The notes under the pieces were generated by a model. The model searched no databases and was not told where the DNA came from. It worked only from the letters and a program-made list of their open reading frames with translations. From NCBI GenBank assembly GCA_964016885.1, contig OZ024742.1:89032001-89096000 (forward strand): 64,000 nt of DNA, read 5' to 3'. Below, in pieces: positions 1-62,077 of the stretch. How positions within the stretch are numbered: position 1 is the first letter of the stretch; each line of letters begins with the position of its first letter. A program made the position numbers and the translations under genes. Origin of the DNA: Eledone cirrhosa (taxonomy: Eukaryota).

Positions 1-148
1 GTGATGTTTGCTCTAATCTGATCAGTTTTGGAAATTCTACCTCTTTTATGTGAAAAAAGTGGCTCCAGAGGTATTAAAGTAAGTTTATATATATACATAT
101 ATTAAAATGAAGTTCTGATAATGAATCCTTATTAACCGATATATATAA

Positions 149-2615
149 TTTCTTCCTGTTTTATGTGAAAAAAGTGGCTCAAGAGGTATTAAGATTTGGT
201 TGGTTGTTGAATGTCAGGTGAATGAGTACTATAAATTTCGCGCCAATTCGTGTTGCAGAAATTCTTGTAGTCCAAACAATTTTGATTGGCCGGTAGAGAT
301 CACGTGAATGTTAAAAATTGATTTTGCTCTAAATGTAGGTTTGTCGAAGAGTGTCCTTTTTCGCCTGATTGAGAAGTCACTGAAAAATAAGTCTTTTAAG
401 ACAAATATGTGTGTGTGTGTGTGTGTGTGTGTAGTAAAGAGGTTCATTGTTGTGATAATGGTCAGTAGGGATGTGTGTGTGAATTGCAGTAAATCCAGGC
501 TTTTCTACGGTATCCCTAAAGTACATAAAAGCGAATTTATAAGTAAGGAATGCAAGGAAGCCACAGACATAGTCATCAATGTCCCCTCACCCAATTATCT
601 CAAATTAAGACCTATAATAGCAGGCTCCGCTTGCGAAACCCACCGCCTTAGCAACTTCATTGATACCCTTCTCAAGCCTTTTCTCAAACACATCAAAACC
701 TATATAAGGGACGACCTAGATATGCTCAATCACCTCCCTAATATGCCCCTTACTGAACAAACCCTACTAGTGACGTTCGAGGTAGTCAACCTATACTCCA
801 ACATACTCCACATCCTAGGAATAGAAGCTATCCAATTCTGGCTGGATAATTACCACAATGAACTCCCACAAGGCATCAAAAAAAAATCGTGATAGAAGGA
901 CTCAAATTTATCTTTGAGAACAATTACTTCGTTTTCAATAACAAATCCTACAGGCAGAAATATGGGACCGCTATGGGAACGTAAACAGCCCCCACTTATG
1001 CCAACCTAGTCATGGGATACCTGGAAATCACCCTCTACACTAAAATACGAAACAAATTTGGAAACACTCTCCACTTACACATAGAAAAGAACTGGAAGCG
1101 ATATCTAGATGACTGCTTCATCCTTTGGCACGGAAACATCGAGAAACTTAAAGAATTGCACACCCATATAAATGTGCTCAATACGAATATTAACTTTACG
1201 ATGGAATACACCCATCAACAACTCCCCTTCCTCGACATCCTCATTAAGATTCATAACAAAAAAATAGAAACAGACATATACTACAATCCCACAGACTCCA
1301 AGCAATATCTTCCTTTCAACTGTTGCCACCCTAGACATGTTAAAATTAATATTCCCTACAACTTAGCCAAGAGAATCTGTACTATAGTCTCCAATACAAG
1401 CACCTGTCACTTACGGCTACAATAACTAAAGGACACACTCATAGGCAGGGACTACCCTGCATCACTAATTGACAATGGAATCCAACGTGCCCTAAAACTA
1501 GTACCCAGTACCTTAGACACCCTAAATTAAATCAACCGAAACTAAAAGCTCTTCCATACATCTCCACACACAACCCCTCAACAATGAGGCCTTTGACACC
1601 ATCCTCCAGAACATCCATGTGTTAAAAAAGGACCATAGAATGAACCAAATCCTTCGAACACACGATATCATAAAGAGCAAAAGACAATCTAAGTCAATGA
1701 AAAACATCCTAACACATGCCAAAATACTGACAACCACAACAACTAAACCCACAGTAAGAGAATGCGATAGACCCAACTGTGGCATATGCATCAACCTAAT
1801 AGAGGGTTCGCAATTCTATTTCAAAGAAGGACAACGTTTTATAGTAAAACACAATTTCACATGCGCATCAGAAAATCTAATATATGTATTAACTTGCTCA
1901 GGTTGTCGAGAACAATACATAGGCCAGACTAAAAACAGCCTCCGCCAACGCATGACTGCCCATAGATCCCAAATTAAAATACGGGAATACAGAAAAATAC
2001 CACTGAGTGAACACATTGATACCTGTGCCGCCCAAAATCATCCCAATTTTAGAATCTTTCCCCTCTACAAATTTAAAGATAATACCATCTACACCCAGCG
2101 CATCAGCAAGGAATCTCACTTTATTAACAAATACGGACACCGTCTAAACACTTCTCCCTAAGACGAACCCACAACATACACACGTCAATCTACATACCTA
2201 CATCAGCATACATCCTACATACATTTCCTATCCACATATAAACACAATGACATACGTAAACACACATGTTCTATGGTGCAACACAAATATACACAAAATT
2301 GCATACCTTTTGATGTTTATAGATATAAACGTGCCGACACACACACATACGCACACATGCATTGCACATTGATGGGCACATACTTATTTGTACACAAGTA
2401 TTCCCATACCGCAGGGCCTAATGGATTCCCCTTGCAGTACGTACAATCTAGACACTCACACACACCTTGGTGTTATGACAATACTATACATCATTTCACC
2501 CCTTATATTATTAATGTTTTTGATGTTCTTTTGACAGAATCGTTTTTTGCAAATTACTGAAAGTATCGAATAATGTACACCATTTTTACCAGTATCACAA
2601 AAATACTGGTCCATC

Positions 2616-2649
<34 letters not shown>

Positions 2650-2850
2650 CACACACACACACACATACACACGCGTACACTAACATACAAACAGACATAC
2701 ACACACACACACACACATACACACACACACACACTTCTCCGTATAAGACAAGAGCTGAAAAATATCTTTCAACATGTTAAAATATCCTCCACACACGTAC
2801 ACACACATTCCTACTGACCGAATTGATTCCCTCTTCCACGAACCACTCTG

Positions 2851-2908
<58 letters not shown>

Positions 2909-3324
2909 TTGTCTTAATAGACACCTGAACTGTTGACCTTTCAACATGACTGCAATTCACACACACACATCCACACTGACCATTATCACAATAATGAACC
3001 TCTTTACTACACACACACACACACACCACACATATTTGTCTTAAAAGACTTATTTTTCAGTGACTTCTCAATCAGGCGAAAAAGGACACTCTTCGACCTA
3101 CCTACATTTGGCGCAAAATCAATTTTTAACATTCACGTGAACTCTACCGGCCAATCAAAATTGTTTTGACTACAAGAAATTCTGCAACACGAATTGGCGC
3201 GAAATGTATAGTACTCATTCACCTGACATTCAACAACCAACCAAATCTTAATACCTCTTGAGCCACTTTTTTCACATAAAACAGGAAGAATTTCCAAAAT
3301 TGATCAGATTAGAGCAAACATCAC
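149..3324 (+). mobile_element. Penelope-like retroelement, 5'-truncated, with inverted pseudo-LTR
   Basis: 149-490 is the reverse complement of 2949-3292; encloses a disrupted RT plus GIY-YIG reading frame; bases 1-78 are a further diverged inverted copy of the right end. Confidence 0.92.
491..2161 (+). pseudogene. PLE reverse transcriptase + GIY-YIG endonuclease, frameshifted and with stops
   Basis: FYGIPKVHK, LRPII, GTAMGT*TAPTYANL, RYLDD, LPFLDI, CGIC, NLIYVLTCSGCREQYIGQT; split over ORFs 308-892, 1012-1425 and 1619-2161. Confidence 0.93.
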
Positions 3325-4795: not shown

Positions 4796-5258
4796 AAAAC
4801 AAATTTAACAACAATAACAACAATGACAGCGTCGTTTTTAAGGCGATGATAGTGGTGCTACAATATATGTAAATATAGTCGTTCACCCGCACACATTTAT
4901 ATATATACACAGATACATAACCCACATAGACACATATACGCACCTACATATTTCTATGCATACACACATTCACATATACATTCATAGTTATATATACTTG
5001 TATATTTACACATACTTCCATATACACAGACAGGTACATATATTTTTCGACACAATCGAAAATGACAACACCATTGGCTCCAGCATTCGTGATGTTGAGC
5101 CCATACTACCTAATATTGAAACATTATGCATAAAACAACGCGCGCGCACAGATACGTCCATATATAGTTCTGTAAACACAGACATATATGCCTAAATATA
5201 AATTAAAATAAAATAATATATAGGATGAACAGTGATAGGCAAGAGTATAAGGGGATAA

Positions 5259-5440
5259 AATTGTTTCTACTTTTGGCACAAGACCAGCAATTACCCAGTG
5301 CATTACTGGTACTTTATTTTATTGACCCAGTAAGGATGAAAGGCAAAGTTAACTTCGGCGGGATTTGAACTCAGATTGGCGTGGGCCACAACTCTATGCA
5401 TCAAAGCATGGCATCCGACCCTCTACCGATACTGCCAATC
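5259..5440 (-). mobile_element. tRNA-derived SINE, family A
   Basis: reverse strand has A-box-like tggcagtatcgg, B-box-like gagttcaaatcc and central ctttcatccttac..ggtc.ataaaataaagtaccag (resembles Deu/Nin domain); about 10 copies in window. Confidence 0.85.
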
Positions 5441-5625
5441 CTCGTAAAGAAAGTATAGGGATTATGAATGTAAGAACAATAAAAAATATAAACATATAGG
5501 GAATATGTAAGAAATATATATAAAAAATATATGAAAGTATACAAAAAATTTTATATTTAGAGATTTTTTTAAATATTAAAAAAATATTTTTGAAATATTA
5601 ATTTTTTTAAATATATAAAGAAAAT

Positions 5626-5758
5626 AATTGTTTCTACTTTAGGCACAAGGCCAGCAATTAACCAGTGCATTACTGGTACTTTATTTTATCGACCCCGTAA
5701 GGATGAAAGGCAAAGTCAACCTCGGCGGGATTTGAACTCAGATCGTAAAGGGACGTAA
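5626..5758 (-). mobile_element. SINE family A, partial
   Basis: near-identical to 5259-5440 and 5981-6167. Confidence 0.85.
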
Positions 5759-5980
5759 AGAAAATAATGTAAGAAAACATGGAATATAAAAATGATATAA
5801 AAAATATAAAAATATAAAAGAAAAGAAAATATAATGGATATAAGAAAGTATATAGAGAAAATATATATAGAAATATTAGCTATATGTATAGACCGTTATA
5901 ATAGCCATGTGTAGTTCGGGATAATGATAATGATGGTTACCTGACTAATAAAAGTAATGATAATTATAAGTTATATTAAT

Positions 5981-6167
5981 AATTGTTTCTACTTTTGGCA
6001 CAAGGCCAGCAATTAACCAGTGTATTACTAGTACTTTATTTTATCGACCCCATAAGGATGAAAGGCAAAGTTAACCTCGGCGGGATTTGAACTCAGAATG
6101 GCAAGGGCCGTAACTCTATGCGTCAAAGCATGGCGTCCGACCCTCTACCGATACTGCCAATCCACCA
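5981..6167 (-). mobile_element. SINE family A
   Basis: full-length copy of the same family. Confidence 0.85.
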
Positions 6168-6220
6168 GTTATATTAATAATAATGATACTAAACATCCTG
6201 GTATTGATGAAAATATCTAA

Positions 6221-6320
6221 CAACTGTTTCTACTTTAGGCACAAGGCCAGCAATAACCCAGTACATTACTGGTACTTTATTTTATCGACCCCGTAAGGAT
6301 GAAAGGTAAATTTAACCTCG
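6221..6320 (-). mobile_element. SINE family A, 3' part
   Basis: matches family 3' half. Confidence 0.8.
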
Positions 6321-11580: not shown

Positions 11581-11769
11581 CAAAGTAAACGAGATATTGT
11601 CTAAGGATTAGACAATATTTCGTTTACTTTGATATATATACATATATATACATATATATAGTAATAATAATAAAATTGAAGACTAAAATCCAAAGGGGGC
11701 TCGATAAGGAAAACTTATATCAAATATATAAGAACCGTAGAGCAAATATTTATTAAAATAACAGATTAA

Positions 11770-11820
11770 AGTTTAAGCAAAGAATCGCTGCTTTCACCCT
11801 TAACGGGATCTTCTGAAACT
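11770..11820 (-). ncRNA. type I hammerhead-like motif (CAGAAGA core variant)
   Basis: inverted copy of 13207-13257. Confidence 0.6.
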
Positions 11821-11911
11821 AACAAAGTCAATCTGTAAACGCAGAACTGGATATTTCAAAAAACGTTGCAGCCGGAGGAAGACAGGAAGACGATACTTTG
11901 GTTCGTGGTAA

Positions 11912-12278
11912 GGTTGTAACACCCACGTCCCGTAGGGCCTACATAGGGTTAACCGCCAATAGTTTCAAGCAGCGTCTTTACATGCATACCCATTCTTTTC
12001 GTTACCCTCTAAGAAGGAATATGACGTCACTTTCAGCTTATATCTGGAGTCTAAAAGACAACCACACCCAATATAAGTTACACTGGGAGATCCTAGCTAG
12101 GGCTAGATCGTATAACGGAAATAAAAGACCATGTGACCTCTGCGCCGCTGAGGCCCTGGAAATACTCTACGCCACAGACCACATCTTAAACAAAAAATCT
12201 GAGACAATTTCGGCTTGTAAACATAAATTGCACAAAACTCTCCTGTATTACAGCCCCACGTTATACCCTAACGGATAG
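11912..12278 (+). pseudogene. PLE GIY-YIG endonuclease C-terminal part (probably Naiad-type), open but 5'-truncated
   Basis: YIGLTANSFKQR..HTHSF, TSLSAYIWSLK, CDLC..E, LNKKSE...CKH; no RT. Confidence 0.85.
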
Positions 12279-13206
12279 CACGATCTATACGTGGATATTT
12301 TACGTCTTGATGTGGCAGCTAAGTATATGTTTTGTTTATTCCTTTACTTATTTGCATAGGTAAGTATATATTACCCATATGTTTTGTGAAGGTATGTATA
12401 CCTTCTCGTACGTATATTTGACTGTTATGGCGTATCATTTTTACATATTCTGGTATTTAGGGTTTGGCTATGTGTATACGGGAGTTTTGCGTCCGAGTGA
12501 GTATGCAGGTTCGTACGTATGGTGGGTGTGTGTATATGTGTACTTCTTGTATTAGTTGACTTACGACTCCGAACATTCGTGTATTTATATGTAGGTATGT
12601 GTGTGCGCTTGTTATATACGTATTTATTTACTTATATACGTTTATATAATTATTTATTTATTTGTACACAAGCATACACACACACACATATTTATATGTG
12701 CGTGGTTTTGTATACCTATGGTAAGGTTTTGCGTATGCTTGTGTATGTACGTATCTGTTTGCGCATATGTATTTATTTGTTTCTATTACTTCTGTATCGT
12801 ATTTATTTACTTTGTTCTTAACTCTGTAGCGGAGATTCATTTGGTCTCCTAGTTCAAATTTTAGTCTACGACTTCTGCTATACCATTTACGTGGTTTTGT
12901 CTTTGCGTGCTTTTGTTCTCCACGCTCCACATATGACTTATTATCTTCGTTTTTTCGTTCATTGCCAGAGAACGTCTATATGCACCACCTAAGAGAACAT
13001 TAGTCTACGACCTCTTTTATACCATAAACGTGGTTTTGTCTTTGCGCGTAATTGTTTTTCACCGCTCCTATTAATGACGTATTATTCGTTTTTTCCCGTT
13101 CTTTGCCAGCGAACGTTACCACGAACCAAAGTATCGTCTTCCTGTCTTCCTCCGGCTGCAACGTTTTTTGAAATATCCAGTTCTGCGTTTACAGATTGAC
13201 TTTGTT

Positions 13207-13257
13207 AGTTTCAGAAGATCCCGTTAAGGGTGAAAGCAGCGATTCTTTGCTTAAACT
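13207..13257 (+). ncRNA. type I hammerhead-like motif (CAGAAGA core variant)
   Basis: agttt CAGAAGA t ccc gttaa ggg t GAAA gca gcgattctt tgc TT aaact. Confidence 0.6.
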
Positions 13258-13434
13258 TTAATCTGTTATTTTAATAAATATACATATATATATATATAAA
13301 TGTAATCTGAGTTTTTCGAATATTAATAATAATATTCCATTCGTTTGCAATTATGCAAATAAGCCTTATTTTTAAAGTAGAATGAGCCCTTCATTCTTGC
13401 TCTTTTGGTTGCATGTAATATATATATATATATA

Positions 13435-13567: not shown

Positions 13568-13805
13568 AGTTTTTTTTTCTTTTTTATGTGGAGTGAGACA
13601 CTTCTAGTCTTCATTAAGACATCTATCTAGGAGAAGGTCACTCTGATATGAAATCTGTGACTTCGTTGCATCTAATGATGTCAATCAGTTCTTCTTTTAG
13701 GGCAAATGCATTCGATGTTCAGTGTGTGGGATTGGCTCCGTGACAAGCCTTTCTTCACCTAAAAAAGCTTCAAACACAGTCATCGTTTGTTTCGTGACAT
13801 TTAAA

Positions 13806-13982
13806 TTGGTATATCGGTAGAGGGTTGGACGCCATGCTTTCTAGCACAGTTACGTCCCTTTACAGTCTGAGTTCAAATCCCGCCGAGGTTAACTTTGCCG
13901 TTCATCCTTACGGGGTCGATAAAATAAAGTACCAGTAATGTACTGGGTAATTGCTGTCCGTGTGCCTAAAGTAGAAACAATT
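13806..13982 (+). mobile_element. SINE family A
   Basis: full-length copy. Confidence 0.85.
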
Positions 13983-14339
13983 ATATGCAGGACTAAAATG
14001 CCACGTCCAGGATGTTCATGCTTAAGTATCAAGCGATAGGATAACTCTAAATAGAATTGCAGCCATCATATATATAAATAAATATATATATTCATATATA
14101 TATATATAAATATATATAGTGAAAGATTGAAGAATAACATGGTCGGCTGTACAGCCGACCATCTTACTCATCAATCTTTCGCTATTACTTCAATATTTCG
14201 CTATATACTACAAGAATAACCTGCATAGGAATTCTCGCGAACTCGCTACCTAACTAAGGAAACCTACGTTAAAACTATCCACAATACAAAGTACTCACAA
14301 CCTCTAACTGGATTACCTATAACGATAACTTGTTATCCC

Positions 14340-19335: not shown

Positions 19336-21084
19336 ATATACTAAGTATTAATGAGACGGTATACATTTAGTAAAGGATAACGATTATAATCTTAGATAAT
19401 AGATTCATACATGCTAACTATAAAATGATCCACATTTCAAAATAAGGTCCGTAAAAATGTACAGGTTAGTTATCAAAACTATATTTAAAACAGAGATAGA
19501 AAAATAAAGGTCTGGATCAAAGTTAATAATATCAAAAAAGTCATAGGTTATGTATATCAACCTGCCAACATGTTCTTAAATTAGTGTCATTCATTCAAAC
19601 CTTGTTTTCATTATAAATGATTAGAAGATAAAGCATTATTAAAGTTTTATAAGCCATTATGATGTATATTTTCAACAATTGATCATGTACGTCTAAAAGC
19701 CAGGCTTGGTTGGTTATTGTTTTTTCCTGACCTTATGCGAGGCTTAGAATGTAGACAAAGCATGATGAAGGCAGTTTGAGAATAATTCACTTTTTTTGTT
19801 AATTAAGTTTTCATAATTATTAATTATCAATAGGGTTTCCATTGTACAGAGAGCGCAGTTACTTGATATACTTGAGTTGCGATAAACTCCACTATTATAA
19901 AGTTTCGTCCAAAAGATAGAGTATTTTAAATTTTTGTCTTTTAATGACCATATAAGCTGTGATAAAGAAGTCGATGATTTCCTATTAGAATTCGAAAATG
20001 AGCATTTATGATTCGCAAATCTAGCCTTAAATGTAGAAGAAGTCGATCCTATGTAGTTGTATGTGTGGTAATCAGTTTTTACGGTGCATTTATACACCAA
20101 ATTCCTACCAGATGGTTGAACGTCTGAAAGTATATACTTTCCTTATGCATATTAACGGCTGAGCAGCCTAATTTGCATATCGAGTGAGTTCAGTCGGCCG
20201 GGCACACCGAAAACGATAAATGGAATAGAATGAAACGAAGTTTCATTTCTCACTCTTAGTACGGCACTTACGTAAATGTAAGTATGTATGTATGTATACG
20301 TACATACATATATGTATACAGACGTACAGTAGTATGTATATATATACATACATGCATAGTTTGAATGGCGATAAAAACAATTACTATTTATCTTTCTAGT
20401 TTTGGGATGGGCATAGTGTGCATCATGTATACCACCTTATCTTTAAAGCCACTTTTCGATAGTGCTTCCTTGTAATTGTAATATATATTTCAGCCTTGTC
20501 AAAGATATCTCTAGTGGATAATAATTTCCGACTTTTCCTCTAATTATATTTACATATTTACTAGGTTTCTAACTATAGCTAGGCGTGTTTTCAGTTTGTA
20601 TGTAGGTACACTTCTTATTCGTTAGGCTTTCTGTTGGGATAGAAGTTTTCGTTCTGTATGTGAGCATTTCGAATGTTTAAACTTTTTAAAATGTGCCTTC
20701 ATTCACTAATGAAGATTCAAATGATAGATTATATGATCCTTTACCCTCATCAAACACATTGGAACAAATTGTTCTCTACATCATTGTCTTCATCCATTTT
20801 AAGACATGTGTCTGCATAGAACATCAAAATGAAATAAAAGATGGACTTCTTCATAGCGTGATTACATGTCTATCATAAAACAAAGCTGCTAGTTTCTCTG
20901 TTTTAATCGGGTATGTTAGCATGAAACATTTATTTTAATTTGCAAATATCTTTTGCATGAATAACCTGAATATTGATATTACACTACAATAAAATGATAT
21001 ATCATCTTCAGTTATGTCTATGCAAGACATTTAATTAAATATCGTAAATGTGAAATTTGTAATAGAATAAAACCAAATACTTAC

Positions 21085-22953: not shown

Positions 22954-24109
22954 CTGTATCAGATTCTAGGCTTTATAATTGACAGTGTTCTTTTTCGGTG
23001 ACCACGTGTGCACCGTATTTCTAAAAGCAATTAAATATAAAAGGTTAAAACTTTGTAGTAAACAATTCATCTCTAGCTAGCTACCTAGCTTGTGCAAAGT
23101 TGAAATTTGACACCGATTGGTGAACTGTTCGGATATATAGATATTACAACTGCTAAAAATACTGACACTTTAGATTGCATGTAATAGTAAAACATTCTGC
23201 TGTTTGGTAAATATTCACTCTCTAATATTTTACAACCATCGGTTAGGTTTTATTTCTCATAATTCTCTTGTATTACTACAACAGATCTCCTCCTCTGCAT
23301 TTACAGCCTGTATACATCTATCAAAGCCCTTATAAATCACAGAATTTCAATTCTATTTCTTTACACAAGGAATCTGTCCCATCCATTATTGTGCACAGTT
23401 TGCCCAATCACTTGCTGTAACTTCTCTCTAATCGAATCGAAATCTAGTACGATTTTTCCCTATCTAAAGTGTCTAATTCGATGAAAAGTGAACCTAAAAA
23501 AAGGAACATAGAGATATATCATGATATATACACAATTCCCACAGCCAATAAACAGATATGTATTTAGTCGGGGAAAAAGAGGAGTGTTCAACTGCAGAAA
23601 TTCCTAAATCCATGAGACCGATTCGCTTAAATCACAGCTTAGCTGGAGTTGAATGAATATCCCTAGCTTTTATGGAGGGTATAGGAAATTAAAGGAAGGA
23701 AAATATCTAGGGAAAGATTTTGAAGTAAGACACAGCAAGTATGAAGAAAAAGAGTGTTTCGAGTACATTGTGCAGCAGTTGTGTACATCCTGGTATTTAG
23801 CGCTAGCAGAGTCCATTATCATAAGGTAAACGGGGAGGGTGTCACTGGCCATGGTCCGCGGCATTGCTTTCCCCGTCTTGTCTGCGGGGCACAGCACTTC
23901 TGCCCTCTTGCCCTAGATCCAAAACCAATCACCCCCCCCCCCCTTCACCCATCCCCTGTCTTCTGCAACACCAGAGCTCTTGCCATCCCCTACCCTTTCC
24001 TTTTCTTCTTTCTTTCTCTCTTTTTTTCTCTATATTTCCCTATTCTTTCTTTCCTTCGGTTTCCCTTTTTTATCATTGCCGTCATTATAGTTGTCTTGTT
24101 AATTTCCTA

Positions 24110-24413
24110 CCGAGGTTAACTTTGTCTTTCATCCTTACGGGGTCGATGAAATAAAGTACCAGTAATGCGCTGGGTAATTGCTGGCCTTGTGCCAAATGTA
24201 GAAACAATTATTATTATAGTTAAAGCAATGGTTTGGCAGTATCGGTAGAGCGTCAGACACCATGCTTTGCAGCATAGAGTTATGGACCTTTCTGTTCTGA
24301 GTTCAAATCTGCCGAGGTTAACTTTGCATTTCATCCTTACGGGGTCGATAAAATAAAGTACCAGTGATGCACTGAGGTAATCGCTTGCCTTGTACCAAAA
24401 GTAGAAACAATTA
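24110..24413 (+). mobile_element. two tandem SINE family A copies (partial 24110-24212, full 24232-24413)
   Basis: match to family consensus. Confidence 0.85.
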
Positions 24414-24561
24414 TAATATTTAAATAGAACATTATGAGAGCAGTGTTTGTAACTTGTTAACAAATAGACCAGAGATTCATTCTCTCTTTCTTTTTTTTCC
24501 TTTCTTATATACACGTATAAATTACAGAAAAGAGTTAAATTATATACATAATTATACATAC

Positions 24562-24620
24562 CTATTTTATTAGCTTTAAAATTATACATGGCATTCACGT
24601 CATATGAAGGAGCTAGATCT
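24562..24620 (-). CDS. M13 peptidase exon with VNAxY substrate-binding motif
   Basis: tattccag|AGAT...AATAG|gtatgt; 59 nt, phase 2 to 1; DLAPSYDVNAMYNFKANKI. Confidence 0.92.
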
Positions 24621-24867
24621 CTGGAATATATAAAACGTATATAACATTACTAAATGTTTATTACAAAATTACAACGAATATTTGATCGAATCGACTCATA
24701 TTATTGGTATTTGCTTGAACTCGCAGGAGAAAGGATAGGCAACGTTAAATACTATAGGATTGAAATTAGATTGTATAACGGTGCATAGGAATGAAATTAA
24801 ATATGAATGTAGTAGGGTTTTTTCTTTATATTTTCAAACTCAGGCATATGATTAACATTCATATAAT

Positions 24868-25000
24868 GATTGTTTCAACGTTAGGCACAACGCCAGCAAT
24901 TAAACAGTGCATTACTGGTACTTTACTTTATCGACCCTGTAAAGATGAAAGGCAAAGTTAACCTTGGCGGGATTTGAACTCGGAATGGCAAGGGCCGTAA
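24868..25000 (-). mobile_element. SINE family A, partial
   Basis: match to family consensus. Confidence 0.8.
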
Positions 25001-25245
25001 CATTCATATAATGATATGAACAGAGAAGGTAACGTAATATAACTAAATCTTACAAGTCATTCCTCTGCTGTTTTACCAGCCCTACAAACCGGTGTTTCTT
25101 CACATTAGTATTGGTTTATAATATAGGCTCAATGGAAGATAAGTTGCAAGGCTTAACAGATAATTATTTTATTGATCTAGGAAATATGAAGAAAAATGCA
25201 GCACTTTAATCTAGTACACGAAAGTAGTTATGTAAATGGTACTCT

Positions 25246-27053: not shown

Positions 27054-27932
27054 CTTTTATTTGTTCATTCAAAATATTTTTCAGGTAATTCTGTCGTACA
27101 GTATACATCAGCAATCGTTATCTAATGTTTAAAACATATGAATAGCTGCGATATATGCACCATATCAATCAAAAACGATATGAGAAATGAGTACCATACT
27201 AAAGCTCCAGTTAGATAGAAATGTTAATAAATACATTTGGTTTGGGTAAACTTTAAGATGTTCTTTCATTGTAGGTTTCTCTTCTTAGCCAGTGCGTTAA
27301 AGAAAATTGATAGTTACAACAATAAAGGTTGAACAGGGAACACATTTTTTAACAAACTTTACAATAATTTGTACAACCATAATGGAAATTCCAAGTAACA
27401 GAAAATACATAAATTACATTGTTAGAGCCTCAGAGTATACAATATGTTTTGTTCGGCCTTCGGCAGCAAAAATGTAGAGATTGTTTGGCGAGCTCACCCT
27501 AGAGCATCCTACATACAATTGACTATGGTTTTCCCAGATGAAGGCCAGCTACTTTTAGGGTTTGAGCGTGAGCTTTGTTGATGGTAATCTCGAAGCTTAG
27601 TCTCTCTGTAGCTCTAGTAGCATTTTTTTCTTCTGGAGAGTTTGATCTTGCGGCCAGGCTAGGACATTTTGGGTGGCATATCGGCAGTAACAATGACGAT
27701 AAGCCGTCTGTTTATATTGTGTTTATATATGTATTTGGCAACCATTCACGATGTGGCTCAATGACGAATTAATTAATAAATAATCAACAATCAGAGCAAT
27801 ATACAATAAAGTACGTCCATAGAATCATTTGATAAAATATATACACCATTTGTTTGACGATAAGCCGTTAGTTTATATTTTGATTTTGTGTATGCAAAAA
27901 ATATATGTATACGAATATATAATTATATATAT

Positions 27933-28078
27933 CAGATTAAAGTTTAAGCAAAGAATCGCTGCTTTCACCCTTAACGGGATCTTCTGAAACTAAAAAAATC
28001 AATCTGTTAACGCAGAAGTAAATATTTCGAAAAACGTTGCAACCGAAAGAAAACAGGAAGATGATACTTTGGTTCGTG
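27933..28078 (-). mobile_element. solo copy of the 11746/13281 pLTR arm (hammerhead-like motif 27941-27991)
   Basis: close match to 11762-11908, including the CAGAAGA core. Confidence 0.85.
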
Positions 28079-28287
28079 AAGACGTTAGGAATGTCGTATA
28101 ACCGGAAGTGTTGACATTTGAAAATGTTAAAGAAGTGAATATTTAAATAATGTCTTTAATCTTTTAACAAAATTCAGTAGACGAAAATGCCTTCACTTTT
28201 TTACTTGGAAAAAGTTACATCTATGGTGCAAATTTGTTGCTCTTTGTCCAGCCGTTTGGCGGAAAGTTTGTTACCGTCAGCTTTATA

Positions 28288-31314: not shown

Positions 31315-31370
<56 letters not shown>

Positions 31371-31452
31371 GTTATTCCGGGTTGAATCGGAGGTAACCAC
31401 AGTAAGTAAGGTACTCAATACATAGCAGAGTATAAAAGTTTTAATATAGATG

Positions 31453-31503
31453 AGATTCTACAGGACTAGAACTGTTTCATTCTTTAGAAATCATCAGGAA
31501 TCT
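31453..31503 (-). ncRNA. type I hammerhead ribozyme
   Basis: inverted copy of 35746-35796. Confidence 0.8.
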
Positions 31504-32116
31504 GGGTATCAAAAAATAAAAATGGTATTTATAGGTCTCTACAAGTGGTAGGAGAGGGTGGGGAGTAGGATGGGTGTAGGTCATTGGTTGATAGAAAAGG
31601 GAATTCATTAAAAGCTAATTCTACAAAGCTATAGTTCATTTTTATTTTTATTTATTTATGTTTTTTAGAGTAACAAAGGCAGACAGAATTCTATAAACAG
31701 GTTCCGGATGGCATACCATTCTTTGTCATTAAGTTTCTCTTAAGCTAACAGATGTCTATAAAATCAGTGGGGGGTCAGTCATGGTAGAGAGAATTAAAGA
31801 AAGGGAGATTCTTTAAAAGCTAAAATCATTAAGGTTCTACCAAGTGACAAAGGTTTAGAGAATTCTGTAGACAGATTCAAAATACTGAGTGCATATCTTA
31901 CAATTATCTTCGAACTTCTCTTAAACTAATCAACTATATGTCAAAAATCAACAGACACATTCACAAAAAAACACACACTCACTCACACACTCACGCGCAA
32001 CCATAAACACACATACACATACACATATACACACATAAAAACACACACACATATACATAAATATATTCATACACATACATATACATACACATATATATAT
32101 ATATATATATATAAAA

Positions 32117-32147
<31 letters not shown>

Positions 32148-32276
32148 TATATATACACACACACATACATATATATATACACACACACGCACATATATAC
32201 ACATATAAAAATACACTCACACACTTACATACAAACACAAATATACATGTGTATACATATACACATAAAGACTCAT

Positions 32277-32319
<43 letters not shown>

Positions 32320-32445
32320 CATATATATATATACACAATGCATATACACACACATATATACATATACACACACATACACACAAACACACATATATATATA
32401 TATACATATACATATATACATAAACAAATATATACATATACATAC

Positions 32446-32480
<35 letters not shown>

Positions 32481-32534
32481 CGCACACACACACACATATA
32501 CACATATACAAGGAAAAAGCACCATACATACACA

Positions 32535-32566
<32 letters not shown>

Positions 32567-32575
32567 CATATACAC

Positions 32576-32612
<37 letters not shown>

Positions 32613-32696
32613 TACACCATTCATACATATATTCATATATATATACACACACATATACATATATATATTTATATATATATATATATATACATATAT

Positions 32697-32737
<41 letters not shown>

Positions 32738-32851
32738 AATATATATATATATATATAAATAAACATACACACACATACATACATATACACATATACATAC
32801 ACACATATATATATATATGTACATATATATATACAAACATATGGGGCTCTT

Positions 32852-33298
32852 TGTAATTGCCTAAATAAGGAAGCATGCCCACTTGAAAACAAATGCCTCA
32901 CTAATGATATCGTATACAAATGCGATGTCATCTCAGGCACCGAGGATTGCAAAAGAACTTACATCGGCATGACCTCCACCAACTTCAAGATCCGTTGGTA
33001 TGCCCATACCCACTCCTTCAGAAGACCGGACAAATCAAATCAGACAACACTCGCCTCCTACGTTTGGGACCTCAAAAGGAACTCCACCCCCTTCACGCTT
33101 AAATGGAAAATACTCCAGGAAGCGCGCTCTTACAACGGAGGACACAAGGGCTGCGACCTTTGTATTTCAGAGAGCTACGAAATTTTATTCGCCAAGGGCC
33201 CGCTACTGAACAAACTCTCTGAACACTGCCCGAACTGCATGCACAAGAACTTTGCAACTTTCAAACACTTTAAGCCAGTGTTAATGCCCGATGGCTAA
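32852..33298 (+). pseudogene. PLE GIY-YIG endonuclease domain (probably Naiad-type), open frame, 5'-truncated
   Basis: [24 protein letters not shown]...[20 protein letters not shown]...CDLCISE...LLNKLSE.CPNCMH; frame extends upstream of the listed ATG at 32969. Confidence 0.9.
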
Positions 33299-33528
33299 AA
33301 ATGACCTCCCCCTATTGGCCTCTATACCTCCTCCCCACCCTACCTCCACCTCTCCTCAACCTGAAATACGGCCACTATGGTTATGTGAGTACCTCCTTCC
33401 TATATACATTTTCTGCCTGTAGAGGTGTTTTTATGTGTCTGCGTATATGCGTATATTTATTGAGTACTTATTTATTTGTATGTGTATATATTTGTTTGTA
33501 TGTGTGTATATGTATGTGTATGTGTATG

Positions 33529-33563
<35 letters not shown>

Positions 33564-33635
33564 ATATGGTTTTTATGTGTGTATATTTATGTATGTATAT
33601 GTATGTATATATGTATGTGTATGTATATGTATATG

Positions 33636-33672
<37 letters not shown>

Positions 33673-33789
33673 GTGTGTATATATGTGTATGTATGTGTAT
33701 GTGTATGTATGTGTGTATGTATGTGTGTGTGTATGTGTATATATGTATGTGTGTATATATATGTGTGTGTATATATGTATATATATACA

Positions 33790-33837
<48 letters not shown>

Positions 33838-33913
33838 TACATGTGTGTGTGTGTATGTGTGTGTGTGTATATATATTTGTGTATGTGTGTGTGTATGTAT
33901 GTGTGTATGCGTG

Positions 33914-33951
<38 letters not shown>

Positions 33952-34296
33952 CATATATACACACACATATATATACACACATACATATATACACATACAC
34001 ACATATATATATGTGTATTTGTGTGTGTATATATGCGTTATGTGTCTGTATATATGTGTATATTTATGTATTGGTCTGTGTATGTATGTGTATATATGTA
34101 TGTATATGGATATATATATATATTTATACATATGCATGTGTATATGTGTGTATATATGTGTGTGTGTATATATATGTGTGTGTATATGTATGTATATATG
34201 GGTATGTGTGTGTGTGTATGTATGTGTATATATGTGTATATGTGTGTATATATATATATGTATATCTATGTGTATGTGTATGTTTGTATATATATT

Positions 34297-34345
<49 letters not shown>

Positions 34346-34426
34346 ATGTGTATATGTATGTATGTGTGTGTATGTTTATTTATATATATATATATATTTA
34401 TGTGTATATATATATATATATATGTG

Positions 34427-34509
<83 letters not shown>

Positions 34510-34551
34510 TTGTGTGTATATATATATGAATATATGTATGAATGGTGTATA

Positions 34552-34590
<39 letters not shown>

Positions 34591-34615
34591 GTGTATATAT
34601 ATATATGTATATATA

Positions 34616-34687
<72 letters not shown>

Positions 34688-34713
34688 GTGCTTTTTCCTT
34701 ATATATGTGTATA

Positions 34714-34764
<51 letters not shown>

Positions 34765-34905
34765 GTGTGTGTGTATGTATATGTATATACTTGTTTATGT
34801 ATATATGTATATATATATGTATATATATATATATATGTGTGTGTTTGTGTGTATGTGTGTGTATATGTATATATGTGGGTGTATATGCATTGTGTATATA
34901 TATAT

Positions 34906-34973
<68 letters not shown>

Positions 34974-35104
34974 CTATGAGTCTTTATGTGTATATGTATA
35001 CACATGTATATTTGTGTTTGTATGTAAGTGTGTGAGTGTATTTTTATATGTGTATATATGTGCGTGTGTGTGTATATATATATGTATGTGTGTGTGTATA
35101 TATA

Positions 35105-35135
<31 letters not shown>

Positions 35136-35745
35136 TTTTATATATATATATATATATGTGTGTATGTATATGTATGTGTATGAATATATTTATATATATG
35201 TGTGTGTGTTTTTATGTGTGTATATGTGTATGTGTATGTGTGTTTATGGTTGAGCGTGAGTGTGTGAGTGAGTGTGTGTTTTTTTGTGAATGTGTCTGTT
35301 GATTTTTGACATATAGTTGATTAGTTTAAGAGAACTTCGAAGATAATTGTAAGATATGCACTCAGTATTTTGAATCTGTCTACAGAATTCTCTAAACCTT
35401 TGTCACTTGGTAGAACCTTAATGATTTTAGCTTTTAAAGAATCTCCCTTTCTTTAATTCTCTCTACCATGACTGACCCCCCACTGATTTTATAGACATCT
35501 GTTAGCTTAAGAGAAACTTAATGACAAAGAATGGTATGCCATCCGGAACCTGTTTATAGAATTCTGTCTGCCTTTGTTACTCTAAAAACATAAATAAATA
35601 AAAATAAAAATAAACTATAGCTTTGTAGAATTAGCTTTTAATGAATTCCCTTTTCTATCAACCAATGACCTACACCCATCCTACTCCCCACCCTCTCCTA
35701 CCACTTGTAGAGACCTATAAATACCATTTTCATTTTTTGATACCC

Positions 35746-35796
35746 AGATTCCTGATGATTTCTAAAGAATGAAACAGTTCTAGTCCTGTAGAATCT
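35746..35796 (+). ncRNA. type I hammerhead ribozyme
   Basis: agattc CTGATGA t ttc taaa gaa t GAAA cag ttctagtc ctg TA gaatct; predicted GUA cleavage after 35790. Confidence 0.82.
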
Positions 35797-35833
35797 CATC
35801 TATATTAAAACTATATATATATATATATTTATA

Positions 35834-36259: not shown

Positions 36260-36460
36260 TTTGTTATACTTGGGGAGGGTCGTATTTGTGTAATAATATT
36301 GCCAGAATTGGTTGGTTTTCGCTTCTGTGTCTTTTATATCGGTTAATTTAATTTATTCGGTCCTCAATGTTACCATTGACTGACCAACGGTCAAAAATAC
36401 AGATACAATATAGACACAAACACATATATATATATGAGTGGGTGTCTGTGTACATATAAC

Positions 36461-36628
36461 TATTTCTACTTTTGGCACAAGGTCAGCAATTATCCCAGTG
36501 TATTACTGGTATTTTATTTTATCGACCCCGTAAGGATGAAAGGCAAAGTTAACTCCGGCGGAATTTGAACTCAGACCACAAAAGACCGTAACTTTTTGCT
36601 AGAAGGCATGGCGCCCGACCCTCCACCG
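36461..36628 (-). mobile_element. SINE family A
   Basis: match to family consensus. Confidence 0.8.
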
Positions 36629-40823: not shown

Positions 40824-41116
40824 CTAAAATTGAAAAATACAATTAATTATTATGGGCAACATGAATTTCCCCATATATATGTGTGTGTTTGTGTATGTGT
40901 GTGTGTACATTGGATTAAGCCCACCGACAAATGCAATCCTTTGTGGCATATATTTATGTACTCCCATTTATATATATTTTATCGACAGGGTAAGGATGGA
41001 AGGCAAAGCTAATTTCGGCGGCTTTCCTGATGATTTCGAATGAAACATTTCTTGTCATCTAGAAGACATTTCCATATTAAATTTTATACAAGTATATATA
41101 TATATAGATATATATG

Positions 41117-41454
<338 letters not shown>

Positions 41455-41834: not shown

Positions 41835-42839
<1,005 letters not shown>

Positions 42840-43053
42840 ATGAATATTATACTCCAGAAAATCTATCTAGTGCTCTGAATCAGTTATAAACATTTATATT
42901 TGTTGAAATACCAACAAATTGAATATCCCTTTGCTTATATATATATATATATATGTATGCGTGTGTGTGTATGTGTGTGTGTGTGTGTGTGCGTGTGTGT
43001 ATTATATATATATATTTATATATATATATGTGTATATATATATATATGTATAA

Positions 43054-43165: not shown

Positions 43166-43979
43166 TATTGTTATACTTTGGGAGGGTCATGTTGCCAATA
43201 AGAAACACACGCACCATAAGTCTTTCACTCCAATTTATTATAAGTTAAATTAAATTATAAATTTAAGAAATTTATAACTTTCGGTTGTTCATATATTGTA
43301 AAAGTTCTTTCGTCACACATTCTCTGACCTCATCAGTGACCGGGGATTCTATTTTTCTTTTTTTTGTGTGTTTTTTGAAAACACACACATAGAACAAACA
43401 ACCAACTAGTAACATGTAAATAAACAAATAAATAAACAAATAAAAACACACACAGACACCCGGATGTAACACATGCCCAAACTAAGCACACAACACACAC
43501 AAAAACAAGATGGCGTAGAACAGAACAAAGGAGAGGCACAAAACAAAGAGAAAAAAAGAATCCCCGGTCAATGATGCTTAGTTTGCGCATATGTTACATC
43601 CGGGTGTCTGTATGTGTTTTTATTTTTTAATTTATTTGTTTATTTACATGTTACTAGTTGGTTGTTTGTTCTATGTGTGTGATTTCAAAAAACACAGAAA
43701 AAAAAGAAAAAAAGAATCCCGGTCACTGATGAGGTCACAGCATGTGTGACGAAAGAACTTTGACAATATATGAACAACCGTCCGGTTGTGGAACCAACCA
43801 ACCAACCGAAAGTTATAAATTTCTTAAATTTATAATTTAATTTAACTTATAATAAATTGGAGTGACAACTATGGTTCGTGTGTTTCTTATTGGCAACATG
43901 ACCTTCCCAAAGTATAACAATATCGGTTTCAACACACGTTTTCAGATAAAGAATTTTGCTAAACAAATTCAAAAACGAA

Positions 43980-49698: not shown

Positions 49699-51172
49699 TA
49701 CACACGTAAACACATATATATATATACAGATGTGAGAAAAACCATACTTTTGAAAAGCAGAAGAACTGCGAAACTGGTAAAGGAACCAAATAAATATATA
49801 TATATTTTTTAAAATAAGACTCCAGTTGCATTTTCGATTTCATCTTTTTTCTTTATATATACATATATACGAAGAAATTAAAAGGTGGTTTAAAAACTTC
49901 CATGTGTGCGCATTTCAAAAACAAATATCATCCTAGGACGATATTTGCGTTCTCATCAGATAAAAGAGGGAGACATGATATGAAGCTTAAAAAAACACTT
50001 GTGAGCAAGGTAGTGTCTAATCAACATATGATAAATAAATGTAAAAGGATATAGGAGATTGGAAAAAAGGGAAGGAAGGGGAAAAAGGAAGGAAGAGGAA
50101 GAAAGGAAAAAAGGGAAAAGGAAGGAACGGATAACGAAGGAAGAGTATAAGAAGGAGGAAGGAGAGAGGAAGAAAAAGGAGAGAAAGAGAGATAGATAAA
50201 CATTTAAACTGAAAAACACTGTCAAAGAGAAATAACTGAAAAAAAAACGGTTGTAAATTTATAAATAAATTAAAAAATTAAAAAATTAAAAATTAATGAG
50301 GTTTATGAATGATGATGTTTATGATAACAGATATAGAAATTAAGTATACTATTTATTTAGGGTTTATATATTTAGGGTTTATATAGTGAAGGATTTATTA
50401 AGATGTGCGAAAATGTTTATTAAAATGTATTATTAAGATAAAATAAAGTAAAATAAGATAAGGTGAATGAAAATAAAATTAAATGATTTATAAGCTTAGA
50501 TGACGATATAGGGTCCTAGCTTGTTACAATAGATTGTAATAGAAAAGGTAATTATTTAAGTTAAGACGGGCACGGAAAGAGAGAAAAAAGAAAAATACGA
50601 GGAAGAAAAAATTACGTCAAATTTTGTTTACAAAATTCACCTTATGCTAATATTAAAAGATTTGAAGTAAAAAATTGGGAAATATAGCGGCTTAAAAAAG
50701 TAATGGTGAGAAGAAATGATATGAAGATGAACTATTTAAATGAAATTTGTATCCCCAAGAAGATAAAGGAATTCGATATAGTGAATCAAAAAGTTAAAAA
50801 ATTGAAAAATTAGGGGACAAAAACGTCATAGTATGAATAAACTTTGTAGAATGTACTGAAATATGCGAGAAAAAGGGGGTATATGTGTAAAAAGAGATAT
50901 ATATGTGTGCGAAAAAGTTTTTAAACTTAATTATGGAGTAAGATATTAGCTGTATACCCTAGAAATGACCTAAGCGATTTATGGATGCAAAGCAAAAATA
51001 AATTTGTGCGTCTATTTATTATGTTGAGTGCTACTTATCCGATATTTGCATTGCTTTATTGTGCTACAATAAAACTCACCTCCTACATATATATATATTT
51101 ATATATATACATACATGCATATATATGTGTATGTGTGTGTGTAATATATATATATGTATATATATATATATA

Positions 51173-51522
51173 TGGAGGAAGTAATAGTTCACTTGAAGCA
51201 TTGTGTAATGAGGTATAAACGTTTGAATTTGTGAAGCCAAACAATGCAGGTATGGACATAGAATAAAAATGCAAATGCAAAATATATTGTTGACAATTAG
51301 TATTTTACCTTAGATTTATTTAAATGCCTTTAATTTTCGAGATAATATCTCTTCTTCGGAGGGAAGTAAAGCGGCTAAACCAGTGTTCTAAATAGCTTGC
51401 CAAGTCATGCACGACTTGGCAAGCTATTTAGAACAGTAGTTTAACACTGTCAACAATATCTTTTGCACTTGCATTTTTATTTTATGTCCATACCTGCATT
51501 GTTTGGCTTTACAAATTCAAAC

Positions 51523-51529
<7 letters not shown>
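51173..51529. mobile_element. palindromic insertion in (TA)n with left tail
   Basis: 51214-51295 inverted to 51448-51529; central hairpin 51384-51435; tail related to 41455-41535. Confidence 0.75.
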
Positions 51530-51573: not shown

Positions 51574-54500
51574 AAAATTGAACGGGAACACAACAGAGAG
51601 GCAGTACGAACAAAGGTTTATTAGTTTCACGCTCTTGAGAGTGGGGTGGTGGTGGGGAACGACGTTTCGGGCATAAGCCCTTCTTCAGGTGAAAAGTGTG
51701 TGGGAAGAGAGTTCAAAGGGTGTGTAGGGGAGTGGTGGAAAGACATATAGCAAAAAGGGGGTGAGAGGAAACGATGCAAATGAAATTAAAAATAAAGGCA
51801 TGATCAAAATAAAATTAAAATGGGGTAAAACAGGTGGTGGAAGGGTGTGGGGAGTGTAGGGGTGGTGGAGGGTGGAGTGGGGAGAGGGAGACGGGGTGTC
51901 CGAGCGGGGAGGGCTGAAGGTGATGTGTGTATGTAAGTGTACGTGTGTGTATGTGTGTGTGTATGTGAAAGTAAGGGTTGGGGGAAGAACGGGGTTGCAT
52001 GTTCAGGAAGAGGTGTGTGTGGGTGGGGTGTAGGTAGGAGTGTGTGTGCGTATGTAGATAGAGGGGTAGGGGGAGAGGATTACGGAGGCTGAATGTGTAA
52101 ATATGTGGTGGTACGCACGTGTGTGTGTGGTGTTTATGCGTGTTGTGGATGTAGGTGGCGTGTGGGGAAAAAAATGTTTTTGGGTGTATGTCTGGGGTTG
52201 AGTCGTAAAGGTAATTCCGTAAAAGGGTGTGGTTGAATGCTGAGTAAAATCCTTGGGATGCGGTAGATTCTCGGGATCAAGATTCACATATGTGTAATCC
52301 GTGAAGAGATTGGTCGGAAGAGAGGAGATGTGGGGTGCGCGTGCAACAGGAAGTGGTCAGAGGGTCAAGGCAGGAGGAGCTATGTGTCTGTGTGTGCGGG
52401 GAGGTGGTCAGAGAGGCATGGCAGCAGTAGGGTAGAATGGTAAGTGAAGAAAGTCGGTGTGTCAGTGTGTGCGGAGGTGCGGTGGACAGGGGAGAGTATG
52501 GGTAGGTGTGAAAGTTGGAGTGAGGAGAGGGGGGTGTATTAGTAGAGGTGTTAGTGGGATGTGTGTGTGTTTGAGAAAGGGTGTGGGTGGAACGGGGAGA
52601 GAAGGATGTGGGGGCCGATGGAGGGAGTGAGTGTAATGTTAGTGGGTGTTAGTATACTGGAGGTGGAGAAAGGGTTGAATACGGGTGTGAGTGGGGGTCA
52701 GTGGTGGTAGGGTGTGTAGAGTGGGTGGTGTAAGAGGGTGTGTGTGTTCGTGTGCGTAGGGTTGGGGGGTGTTAGTGATGTTAGTTGCGTGTAGAGTGGG
52801 TGGTGTAAGTGGGTGTGTGTGTTCGTGTGCTTGGGGTCAGGGGATGTTAGTGATGTTAGTTGCGGGGTGGTAGGGTGGATGTGTGGGGGTGAGTGTTAGT
52901 GGTGGTAGTAGGGTGTGTGTTTAGTGTGAGCGCGTGTATATATGTACCGGTGGGTGTGGGCGTGTGATAAGGAGGGGCAGGAGAAGAATGGAGGGTGTTA
53001 GTATGTTAGTTGGGGAAGGGTGGTCGGATGTGGAGTGGAGGTGTTAGTATTGTTAATTGTGGGGTGGGCGGTGAAAAGGAGGGGTGTGTTAGTGGTGTTA
53101 GTGGGGGATATGTGTGGGGGGAGGGGGGCGGTCGAAGGCTAAAGGAATAAGGGTGGGGAGTTCAGGCCGGTGGGAGTGTGGGTCTGTAGGGTGAAGATGG
53201 TTCGTTGTTCGACCCTTAGGAGAGTGGCGGGTTTTCCGTGGCATTGGAGTAGGCCACAACAGACTGTGAGGTGGTGTGCGGAATGTCCAGGGGTTACCAA
53301 AGTGGCGGGCAATGGGGGAACTACCACCGACACGAATATCCCGGAGGTGCTCAGTAAATCTGTCAGCCAGGCGACGTCCAGTCTGTTCGACGTAATTCCG
53401 CGAATTCCGTAGACTAGGTTGGAGGAGGTGCAGCGGAAGGCATGCCGGACAGAGAGAGAGGGTGGCCGTTGGGACCCTGGAAGGTGGTGATTTTGGTGAT
53501 GTGGGGACAGGTGTTTCAGCGGGGGCTAGAACAGGGAAAGGAACCGGGGGGGTGGAAGAGAGCGTGGGTTGGGGGGTAGGGAGCTGTGGACGAGGAGGGT
53601 GCGGAGATTGCGTGCGCGTTTGAAGGAGAGGAGTGGTGGGGCTGGGAAGATATGGGAGGTTGAGGGGTCTGACTGGAGGCGTCGGAAGAGGCGGAGGATG
53701 GTGCGGTGGAGGGGTATGGTGGAGGGGTGGTAGATGATGGGGAAGGGGAGACGGTGGGTGGGTGCGCGGTGGCGTGGACAGTACGGGCGCGGGTGAGAGC
53801 GGTGTGGATGAGAGAGGGGGGGTAACCTCTGCGGATGAAATGGCTGACTAGGGAAAGGGCCTGGGACTCAAAGTCAGCATCTCGGCTACAGAGGCGGCGG
53901 ATCCTGAGGAATTGGGAGTAGGGAATAGACTGTTTAGTGTGTGTGGGGTGGGAAGAGATGAATTCGAGGTAGGAGTGGGAGTCGGTGGGTTTGAAGAAGC
54001 CGGAGGTGACGAGGGAGTGGTGGGAGGGGTCGAAGGCGACGGAGATGTCTAAGAAGTGGACGTGGAGATAGAGGTGGTGAAGTGGAGGGAGGGGTGGAAG
54101 GAGCAGAAGAAGGAGAGAAAGGAGTCGAGCTGTTCTCGGGTGAGGGTCGTGGCTCCGATACAGTCGTCGATGTAACGACCGTACAGTTCGGGCGTGGGGC
54201 CGGTGTACTGGGCAAAGATTTGGGCCTCAACATGGCCAACAAAAAGGTTGGCATAGTTTGGGCCCATTCTTGTACCCATGGCTACCCCCGTTACCTGTTT
54301 GTAAAACTCACCCGAGAAGAAGAAACAGTTGAGGGTGAGGACCAGTCGGCGAGGCGAAGGTGGTGGGGGTGGAGGGGAGGGGGGAGGGGCGAAGGTCGAG
54401 GTAGTTTTTGAGGGTGCGTAGGCCGACGGCGTGGGGTATGACAGTATAGAGGTACTTAATGTCTAGGGTGAAGAGGAATGGCTGTGGGCCGGGTGGGTAG

Positions 54501-54892: not shown

Positions 54893-54954
54893 ATAAACAC
54901 AAAATTGTTTTCGCACCTAATGTATTCATGAGTGAATAATAAAAATATTACAAT

Positions 54955-58221: not shown

Positions 58222-58276
58222 ACTGCTATATATATTTCGGTGACAGCCATTTTTGGCTGTGACCTCTTCAGGCAGT
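58222..58276 (-). ncRNA. type I hammerhead ribozyme, intact core
   Basis: actgc CTGAAGA ggt c acagcca aaaa tggctgt c acc GAAA tatata TA gcagt. Confidence 0.88.
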
Positions 58277-61335: not shown

Positions 61336-61979
<644 letters not shown>

Positions 61980-62077
61980 CTTCTACAGGACTATATTATA
62001 TATATATATATATATATGAATGTATATATATATAAATACGTATATATATAAATACATATATATATATAAAACTGATC

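Follow-up and report, generated by a model that had tools for sequence, protein, structure and literature searches.

Organization of the locus

Positions 11661-13281 of the window (the whole 64,000-nt stretch of DNA analyzed) are occupied by a palindromic element with two inverted pLTR arms, a nuclease coding remnant and a long 3' region. No exact inverted match exceeds 166 nt, the length shared by 11746-11911 and 13116-13281 (166/166 identical), in agreement with the identical 166-bp arms reported in an earlier note on this DNA; BLAST lengthens this match by 4 nt with one mismatch (E 4e-82). The left arm (11746-11911, minus strand) is an inverted, 5'-truncated pLTR copy and the exact reverse complement of the right arm (13116-13281, plus strand), which is the direct pLTR end. 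Each arm contains a 51-nt type I hammerhead layout with the core CAGAAGA (A at position 4), located at 11770-11820 on the minus strand and, as the sense copy with stem II closed by a U.U pair, at 13207-13257 on the plus strand. Between the arms lie the 5'-truncated coding remnant of a Hydra-type GIY-YIG endonuclease (11912-12278, plus strand, 121 codons of its own from 11913) and a low-complexity, TA/TG-rich 3' untranslated region (12279-13115, plus strand). The 3' region is closed by a tandem duplication with a period of about 139 bp (12861-12988 and 13000-13128, 81% identical), which stops at the inner boundary of the right arm.

The left arm is continued outward by a tail of 85 nt (11661-11745, minus strand), the right arm by none. 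This overhang is read as element sequence located after the pLTR, where the 5' UTR of the next unit begins; the distal start site of reverse transcription would lie at the outer end of the overhang, and the proximal one at the outer end of the right arm, just before a would-be GCTCT motif. A tail of about 85 bp had been described earlier as common to this element and a second one at 31370-35812; the length holds for the present element, whereas the tail of the second measures 67 nt. Arms of which the left is inverted and 5'-truncated, together with a one-sided tail, constitute the published layout of EN+ insertions of Penelope-like elements (PLEs).

The element is flanked by an imperfect (TA)n target tract on the left (11632-11660) and a short imperfect (TA)n tract on the right (13282-13298). 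The (TA)n flanks noted earlier are present on both sides, but the left one is split by a 51-bp near-perfect hairpin (11581-11631) and the tracts adjoining the element are short and imperfect; they fit (TA)n insertion as in the Hydra clade. The hairpin, which has no second copy within the 64-kb window, is possibly a tiny independent insertion. The last 15 nt of the left tract are repeated at 13278-13292, and the resulting direct repeat of 11-15 nt around the element, tail included, is a possible, weak candidate for a target-site duplication of 11-15 bp. Because the 15-mer is common in the window (25 occurrences, 10+15 on the two strands), chance may also account for this repeat, and the flanks are of low complexity.

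Classification of the endonuclease remnant

The open frame at 11823-12278 ends in YPNG and a stop codon, and the frame at 32759-33298 of the 31370-35812 element ends in MPDG and a stop codon. The two share 45.8% identity over 131 aa (E 6e-42), which bears out the homology proposed in the earlier note from the common P[N/D]G ending. Pfam gave no family for the frame, and a word-index search with the 121-aa remnant gave one candidate and no match; a HMMER search with the remnant gave 3964 relatives at E<=0.001. Among the best 150 of these 3964, CxxC..E was present in 146 and CxH in 143. The corresponding CDLC..E and N...CKH of the remnant are nearly invariant across the alignment of the relatives, and its stop lies 41-46 residues past CxxC..E, as in the relatives.

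Regarding the long relatives (498-750 aa, 120 listed of 191 matches), the nuclease domain (CxxC..E plus CxH) was C-terminal in all 120 listed; the RT motif YRDD and the CxCX5C linker were each found in 119, DK[TS] in 108 and RW[KR] in 87 of them. The two Cys of CCHH were found in none of the 118 listed long relatives that have both the VY and YIG motifs. According to PMC8557442, the Hydra clade is marked by a C-terminal GIY-YIG domain without CCHH, CxxC and CxH flanking E and N, CxCX5C, RWK and DKT. Because the motifs of the long relatives equal these features, the frame is classified, on sequence grounds, as the C-terminal GIY-YIG domain of a Hydra-clade PLE. The nine residues of its own that precede YIG (VVTPTSRRA) span the CCHH Cys positions and include no Cys. 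One match (P0012, E 2e-22) equals, by eye and almost letter for letter, the published nuclease row of Hydra-2_Amil.

A profile built from the 150 best database matches alone scored the frame at 168 bits, that of the 31370-35812 element at 178 bits, a third remnant (19747-20142) at 134 bits and the Neptune-like nuclease of the window at 23.5 bits. In a tree of 27 chosen rows (4 from the window and 23 from the database, exclusive of the published Naiad, Neptune and Poseidon sequences and with a long branch as outgroup), the three Hydra-type remnants of the window clustered with seven database proteins (support 95/98). The profile score, the RT-EN motifs of the relatives and this cluster agree with the grouping with PLE endonucleases put forward earlier; the clade is Hydra, which was absent from the clades then named (Naiad, Neptune and Poseidon). 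Naiad, with an N-terminal nuclease that contains CCHH and is followed by the RT, was rejected: here the stop comes after the nuclease and CCHH is absent. Neptune and Poseidon were rejected on the missing Cys before YIG and on the 23.5 versus 168 bits.

The break at 11911/11912 falls inside the nuclease domain, just after the site of the first motif. YIG, R, E, N, CxxC and CxH are kept; the first catalytic Tyr and the CxCX5C linker are lost. In the column of the first Tyr, 82 of the 95 database rows without a gap have Y, as do the other two remnants of the window; in the present frame this column is occupied by Val, which is encoded by arm DNA. The linker belongs upstream of the break, and is present at 32852 in the 31370-35812 element. 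No RT match near the locus was obtained with 120 full-length proteins. The remnant is thus a 5' truncation product of an RT-EN polyprotein, broken inside a domain, and not the EN-only element it was first taken for.

Three further PLE-related loci were observed in the window. The remnant at 19747-20142 (minus strand) is a third endonuclease of Hydra type, more divergent and with the VY motif kept; arms or a hammerhead were not detected there. A near-complete, frameshifted Neptune-like PLE with inverted arms (94% identical) occupies 147-3293, with RT pieces at 308-1425 and a nuclease with a Pfam GIY-YIG match at 1526-2161; this nuclease has both Cys between VY and YIG and is far from that of the 11661-13281 element. 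A broken RT-EN of another PLE lies in GC-rich sequence at 53100-54916 (minus strand).

Hammerhead layouts

The 64-kb window was scanned for the type I layout with a relaxed core (position 4 free), which gave 10 motifs, two of them in the arms of the 11661-13281 element, versus a mean of 0.08 (maximum 1) in 60 shuffles. The 51-nt hammerhead fold claimed earlier stands as a layout in both arms, but its core is CAGAAGA and not CUGANGA, Rfam gave no family at gathering score within the window, and the fold is not the minimum-energy one (-4.8 versus -8.8 kcal/mol). Neither the ribozyme nor the tails nor the junction had a folding energy better than shuffled sequence (z -0.95 to 0.62), and a junction hairpin for self-priming is not supported on the same measure. 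In line with the earlier statement, no likeness between the arms and those of the 31370-35812 family was detectable beyond the hammerhead (z 0.5-1.2).

A third copy of the same pLTR, without a tail, lies at 27914-28086 (minus strand, about 88% identical). It shows 20 differences over the 166-nt arm, all of them outside the 51-nt hammerhead (for a fixed block, P is about 4e-4); an exchange by recombination among subfamilies could be an alternative cause of this sameness. All three copies (both arms and 27914-28086) have A at position 4 of the core, and the core of a distant relative at 56528-56571 is CGGAAGA, with G at this position. In the published Hydra table all 26 rows read CUGANGA, but these were found with a canonical descriptor; stem II is closed by U.U in 14 of the 26 listed rows (PMC8557442). 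Regarding position 4, PMC3088659 describes U4C in a viroid, with reduced activity, and its passage on this variant mentions neither U4A nor U4G; tolerance at this position is suggested in PMC4075628, and PLE ribozymes of low activity and much variation are described in PMC4209133. No report of U4A was found in the literature searched. Such cases may already be listed in a study of small hammerhead variants associated with PLEs that dates from 2017.

The third pLTR copy is surrounded by pairs of repeats in inverted and direct orientation (27724-27849/28434-28559 and 28362-28484/29050-29172), as if one insertion in a TA tract had been nested within another. A single hammerhead layout lies near a TA tract at 58222-58276 (minus strand), and a decayed ribozyme remnant of the 31370-35812 family at 41024-41089 (plus strand).

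Tail and arm/tail junction

The sequence across the arm/tail junction recurs with 23 of 24 nt at 56602-56625, behind the hammerhead layout at 56528-56571. Out of 1276 windows compared with the junction, this one scored highest (44 against 35 for the next locus; blastn E 1.8e-4). The locus as a whole (56528-56660) is a distant relative of the 11661-13281 family. The tail starts with GCTCTAC, of which GCTC pairs with GAGC; the pattern, chosen after viewing the data, occurs nine times in the window and has a chance of about 0.2% in a fixed 30-nt zone. By eye, several of the Hydra consensi in PMC8557442 show GCTCT and then a GAGC-like sequence, either after the ribozyme or at the 5' start. In the 31370-35812 family a second copy of the 67-nt tail, ending at the same point, lies at 41342-41408 (z 17.8).

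As judged from the recurrence of the junction at another hammerhead locus, the tail is element DNA, in agreement with the earlier claim. The rest of the 85 nt has no significant second copy within the window. A global alignment with the tail at 61.4 kb is weak (z 2.5); direct homology to the sister-family tail was left out of the main evidence because unrelated AT-rich windows score higher. Tails in the window measure 44-97 nt and are longer than the published 30-40 nt.

Insertions of the same layout in the window

Ten inverted pairs were hand-picked from a self-BLAST of the window. Seven lie between TA tracts with an overhang on one side only, which measures 85, 67, 67, 96, about 92, 44 and about 60 nt and is on the left in four pairs and on the right in three; for the other three pairs the ends could not be defined. 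A nuclease remnant is present in only two of the seven pairs with an overhang and absent from five. In the 31370-35812 family the arms range from 58 nt to over 1.4 kb, with the tail on either side. Two nuclease-free head-to-head copies of this family lie between (TA)n tracts, at 41225-41408 (184 bp, tail of 67 nt on the right) and at 61379-61885 (tail of about 96 nt on the left). Because nuclease-free copies share the layout, 'EN-only' describes how far one cDNA ran and not, as had been proposed, a class of elements.

A separate head-to-head family with a long stem II and a tail on one side only (about 92 nt) was observed at 42532-42935, with hammerheads at 42576-42635 and 42738-42798 whose stem III is a palindromic TATATA; a degenerate copy lies near 62.1 kb (62060-62185). 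Head-to-head insertions in TA tracts are also found at 51170-51529 (overhang 44 nt, inner palindrome 51376-51443) and 43170-43978 (overhang about 60 nt); the relaxed-core scan found no hammerhead in either.

Proposed origin of the insertion

The 11661-13281 element is very probably a dead-on-arrival, 5'-truncated insertion of a Hydra-clade PLE, in which two truncated cDNAs, primed from both strands of the target, became linked in head-to-head orientation. A tandem-type RNA would be supplied by an autonomous RT-EN copy at another site of the genome (...ORF-3'UTR-pLTR-5'UTR...), and the GIY-YIG endonuclease of that copy would, in trans, nick both strands of a (TA)n tract. By analogy with an anole PLE, each nick would prime reverse transcription at one of two internal RNA start sites about 85 nt apart. 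The cDNA from the distal site would carry the tail and halt after 251 nt (tail plus arm), and that from the proximal site would extend for 1370 nt through the pLTR and the 3' UTR and halt inside the endonuclease gene. The two may then have been joined with the help of short near-homology; at the junction three nucleotides agree again past one mismatch.

The components of this scheme have published counterparts. An inverted 5'-truncated copy beside the 5' end and a tail of 30-40 bp at one end only are described in PMC8557442 and PMC3846280, and the Hydra consensus Penelope-13_HM bears an inverted 5'-truncated copy (PMC8557442). According to the experiments reported in PMC11167929, purified PLE protein cuts and extends both strands and prefers AT-rich DNA; two internal RNA start sites are used, their spacing equals the tail, and cleavage by the ribozyme is unneeded.

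A broader reading is offered only tentatively: that a Hydra hammerhead with a purine at position 4 is kept under selection and that, jointly, head-to-head insertions with strictly one tail are the trace of a dimeric RT-EN, which would use each of two start sites on the RNA to prime on one strand of the target. A hammerhead selected in this form would be either a putative protein-assisted or dimer-dependent ribozyme, or a fold kept as a binding signal for the RT and not as a catalyst. The variant at position 4 is of interest for the role of hammerheads in PLEs.

With 0 differences in 166 arm positions, the divergence is at most 1.8% (95%), and the insertion is likely young, as the earlier note had concluded from the identity of the arms. 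Gene conversion can occur between inverted repeats. The arms might accordingly owe their identity to such conversion or to assembly polishing, the insertion being older than it looks, or the tail might be host DNA; the loose bound and the ambiguous target-site duplication leave room for such readings, which are nevertheless unlikely. All 121 codons of the remnant are free of stops and frameshifts, whereas only 21% of simulated copies remain stop-free at 10% divergence. Other inverted pairs in the window retain arm differences of 1-21%, so arms have not been collapsed in general, and the junction motif is shared with another hammerhead locus.

It is quite improbable that the locus is instead a non-autonomous, palindromic MITE-like unit, born by truncation, that moves as a whole with fixed boundaries by means of RT-EN supplied in trans, the nuclease being passive cargo. 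The cis-signals are intact at both ends, PLE pLTRs can mobilize unrelated cargo in trans (as described in part of PMC3846280), and the similarity of the third pLTR copy also fades near the inner end of the arm (13093-13112). Against fixed boundaries, the 11911/11912 junction has no second copy in the 64 kb, and the variable arm length and tail side of the sister family are what random truncation predicts.

Coding capacity

Head-to-head joining of truncated cDNAs would leave the frame without a start codon of its own. As reported earlier, a TTG at 11898 within the arm is in frame (126 stop-free codons) and no ATG start exists: the plus strand has no ATG at 11661-11915, and the only in-frame ATGs (11982 and 12021) lie downstream of the YIG and Arg motifs. 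Neither an ATG-led frame across arm and tail in the sense orientation nor a splice-acceptor pattern ahead of the remnant was found. Since 87-95% of simulated copies remain stop-free at 0.3-0.9% divergence, the open frame in a young copy needs no selection.

The AlphaFold model started from the TTG has a mean pLDDT of 91, and arm-derived residues fill its first strand. VIA-align superposes residues 1-101 of the model on residues 5-93 of the I-TevI chain (Z 10.2, rmsd 2.3, 86 residues), a predicted fold match that supports the earlier description of an open GIY-YIG C-terminal frame; by our reading the Val lies at I-TevI residue 6. Foldseek gave no match at E<=0.001, with I-TevI at rank 15, and a PDB sequence search with the profile gave nothing at E<=1. 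Because the model folds well from the TTG, a folded, probably inactive peptide is structurally possible. An expressed mini-endonuclease gene translated from this TTG, for which the stop-free codons, the retained YIG, R, E and N and the confident GIY-YIG model would speak, is very improbable, since the TTG is arm sequence read backwards, the CxCX5C linker is gone and the catalytic core is incomplete (the Y6A exchange abolishes I-TevI activity according to PMC1952068).

Comparison with known elements

The element resembles the Hydra clade (Craig et al. 2021, PMC8557442; for example Hydra-1_Obim, Hydra-2_Amil and Penelope-13_HM) in its CCHH-free, C-terminal GIY-YIG domain with CxxC and CxH around E and N, the (TA)n target, the type I hammerhead layout close to the 3' end, whose stem II is closed by U.U, and the inverted 5'-truncated copy at the 5' end. 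A GCTCT...GAGC-like motif, visible by eye behind the ribozyme of several Hydra consensi, is shared as well. It differs from the published members in the absence of the RT from this copy, the core CAGAAGA versus CUGANGA (26 rows, canonical descriptor), a longer stem III, a 3' region of about 1 kb and the tail of 85 nt. Because ribozyme and nuclease differ by eye from those of Hydra-1_Obim, the family is another one, apparently an unlisted family of Hydra-type PLEs. Both layout and clade have been published, and the element is ordinary for its group apart from the letter at hammerhead position 4 and the long tails.

Canonical PLE insertions (Penelope/Poseidon, Adineta Pen2 and anole PAc, as described in PMC3846280 and PMC11167929) likewise show head-to-head inverted pLTRs with an optional one-sided tail, an AT-rich target and a short possible target-site duplication. 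In Poseidon the nuclease contains CCHH and the tails, 30-40 nt long, overlap with the beginning of the ORF, whereas the present tail is longer and without ATG. The preference for (TA)n is shared with Naiad and the inverted or tandem layouts with Naiad and Neptune; in contrast, the Naiad nuclease is N-terminal with CCHH and Naiad lacks canonical hammerheads, and Neptune carries CX2-5CxxC together with CCHH. The non-LTR retrozymes of animals, which have a type I hammerhead (10.64898/2026.07.22.740005), are also described as PLE-derived, hammerhead-bearing and non-coding, but they form head-to-tail tandem arrays, unlike the head-to-head pair with a nuclease remnant found here.

In its microsatellite load and its SINE the window may resemble octopus genomes. 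PLEs with recent copies have been reported in such genomes (PMC13282606). The two-start-site model has so far been demonstrated in vitro for one Poseidon element (PMC11167929), and one-tailed palindromic copies are natural products on which such reverse transcription can be tested in the little-studied Hydra clade. Remnants of this kind matter for annotation because Pfam (no GIY-YIG match) and Rfam miss them, and they can pass for small nuclease genes. A SINE-like repeat of about 180 bp also occurs in many copies, 80-94% alike, across the window (5255-6320, 13804-13987, 24107-25001, 36453-36628 and 59802-59991).
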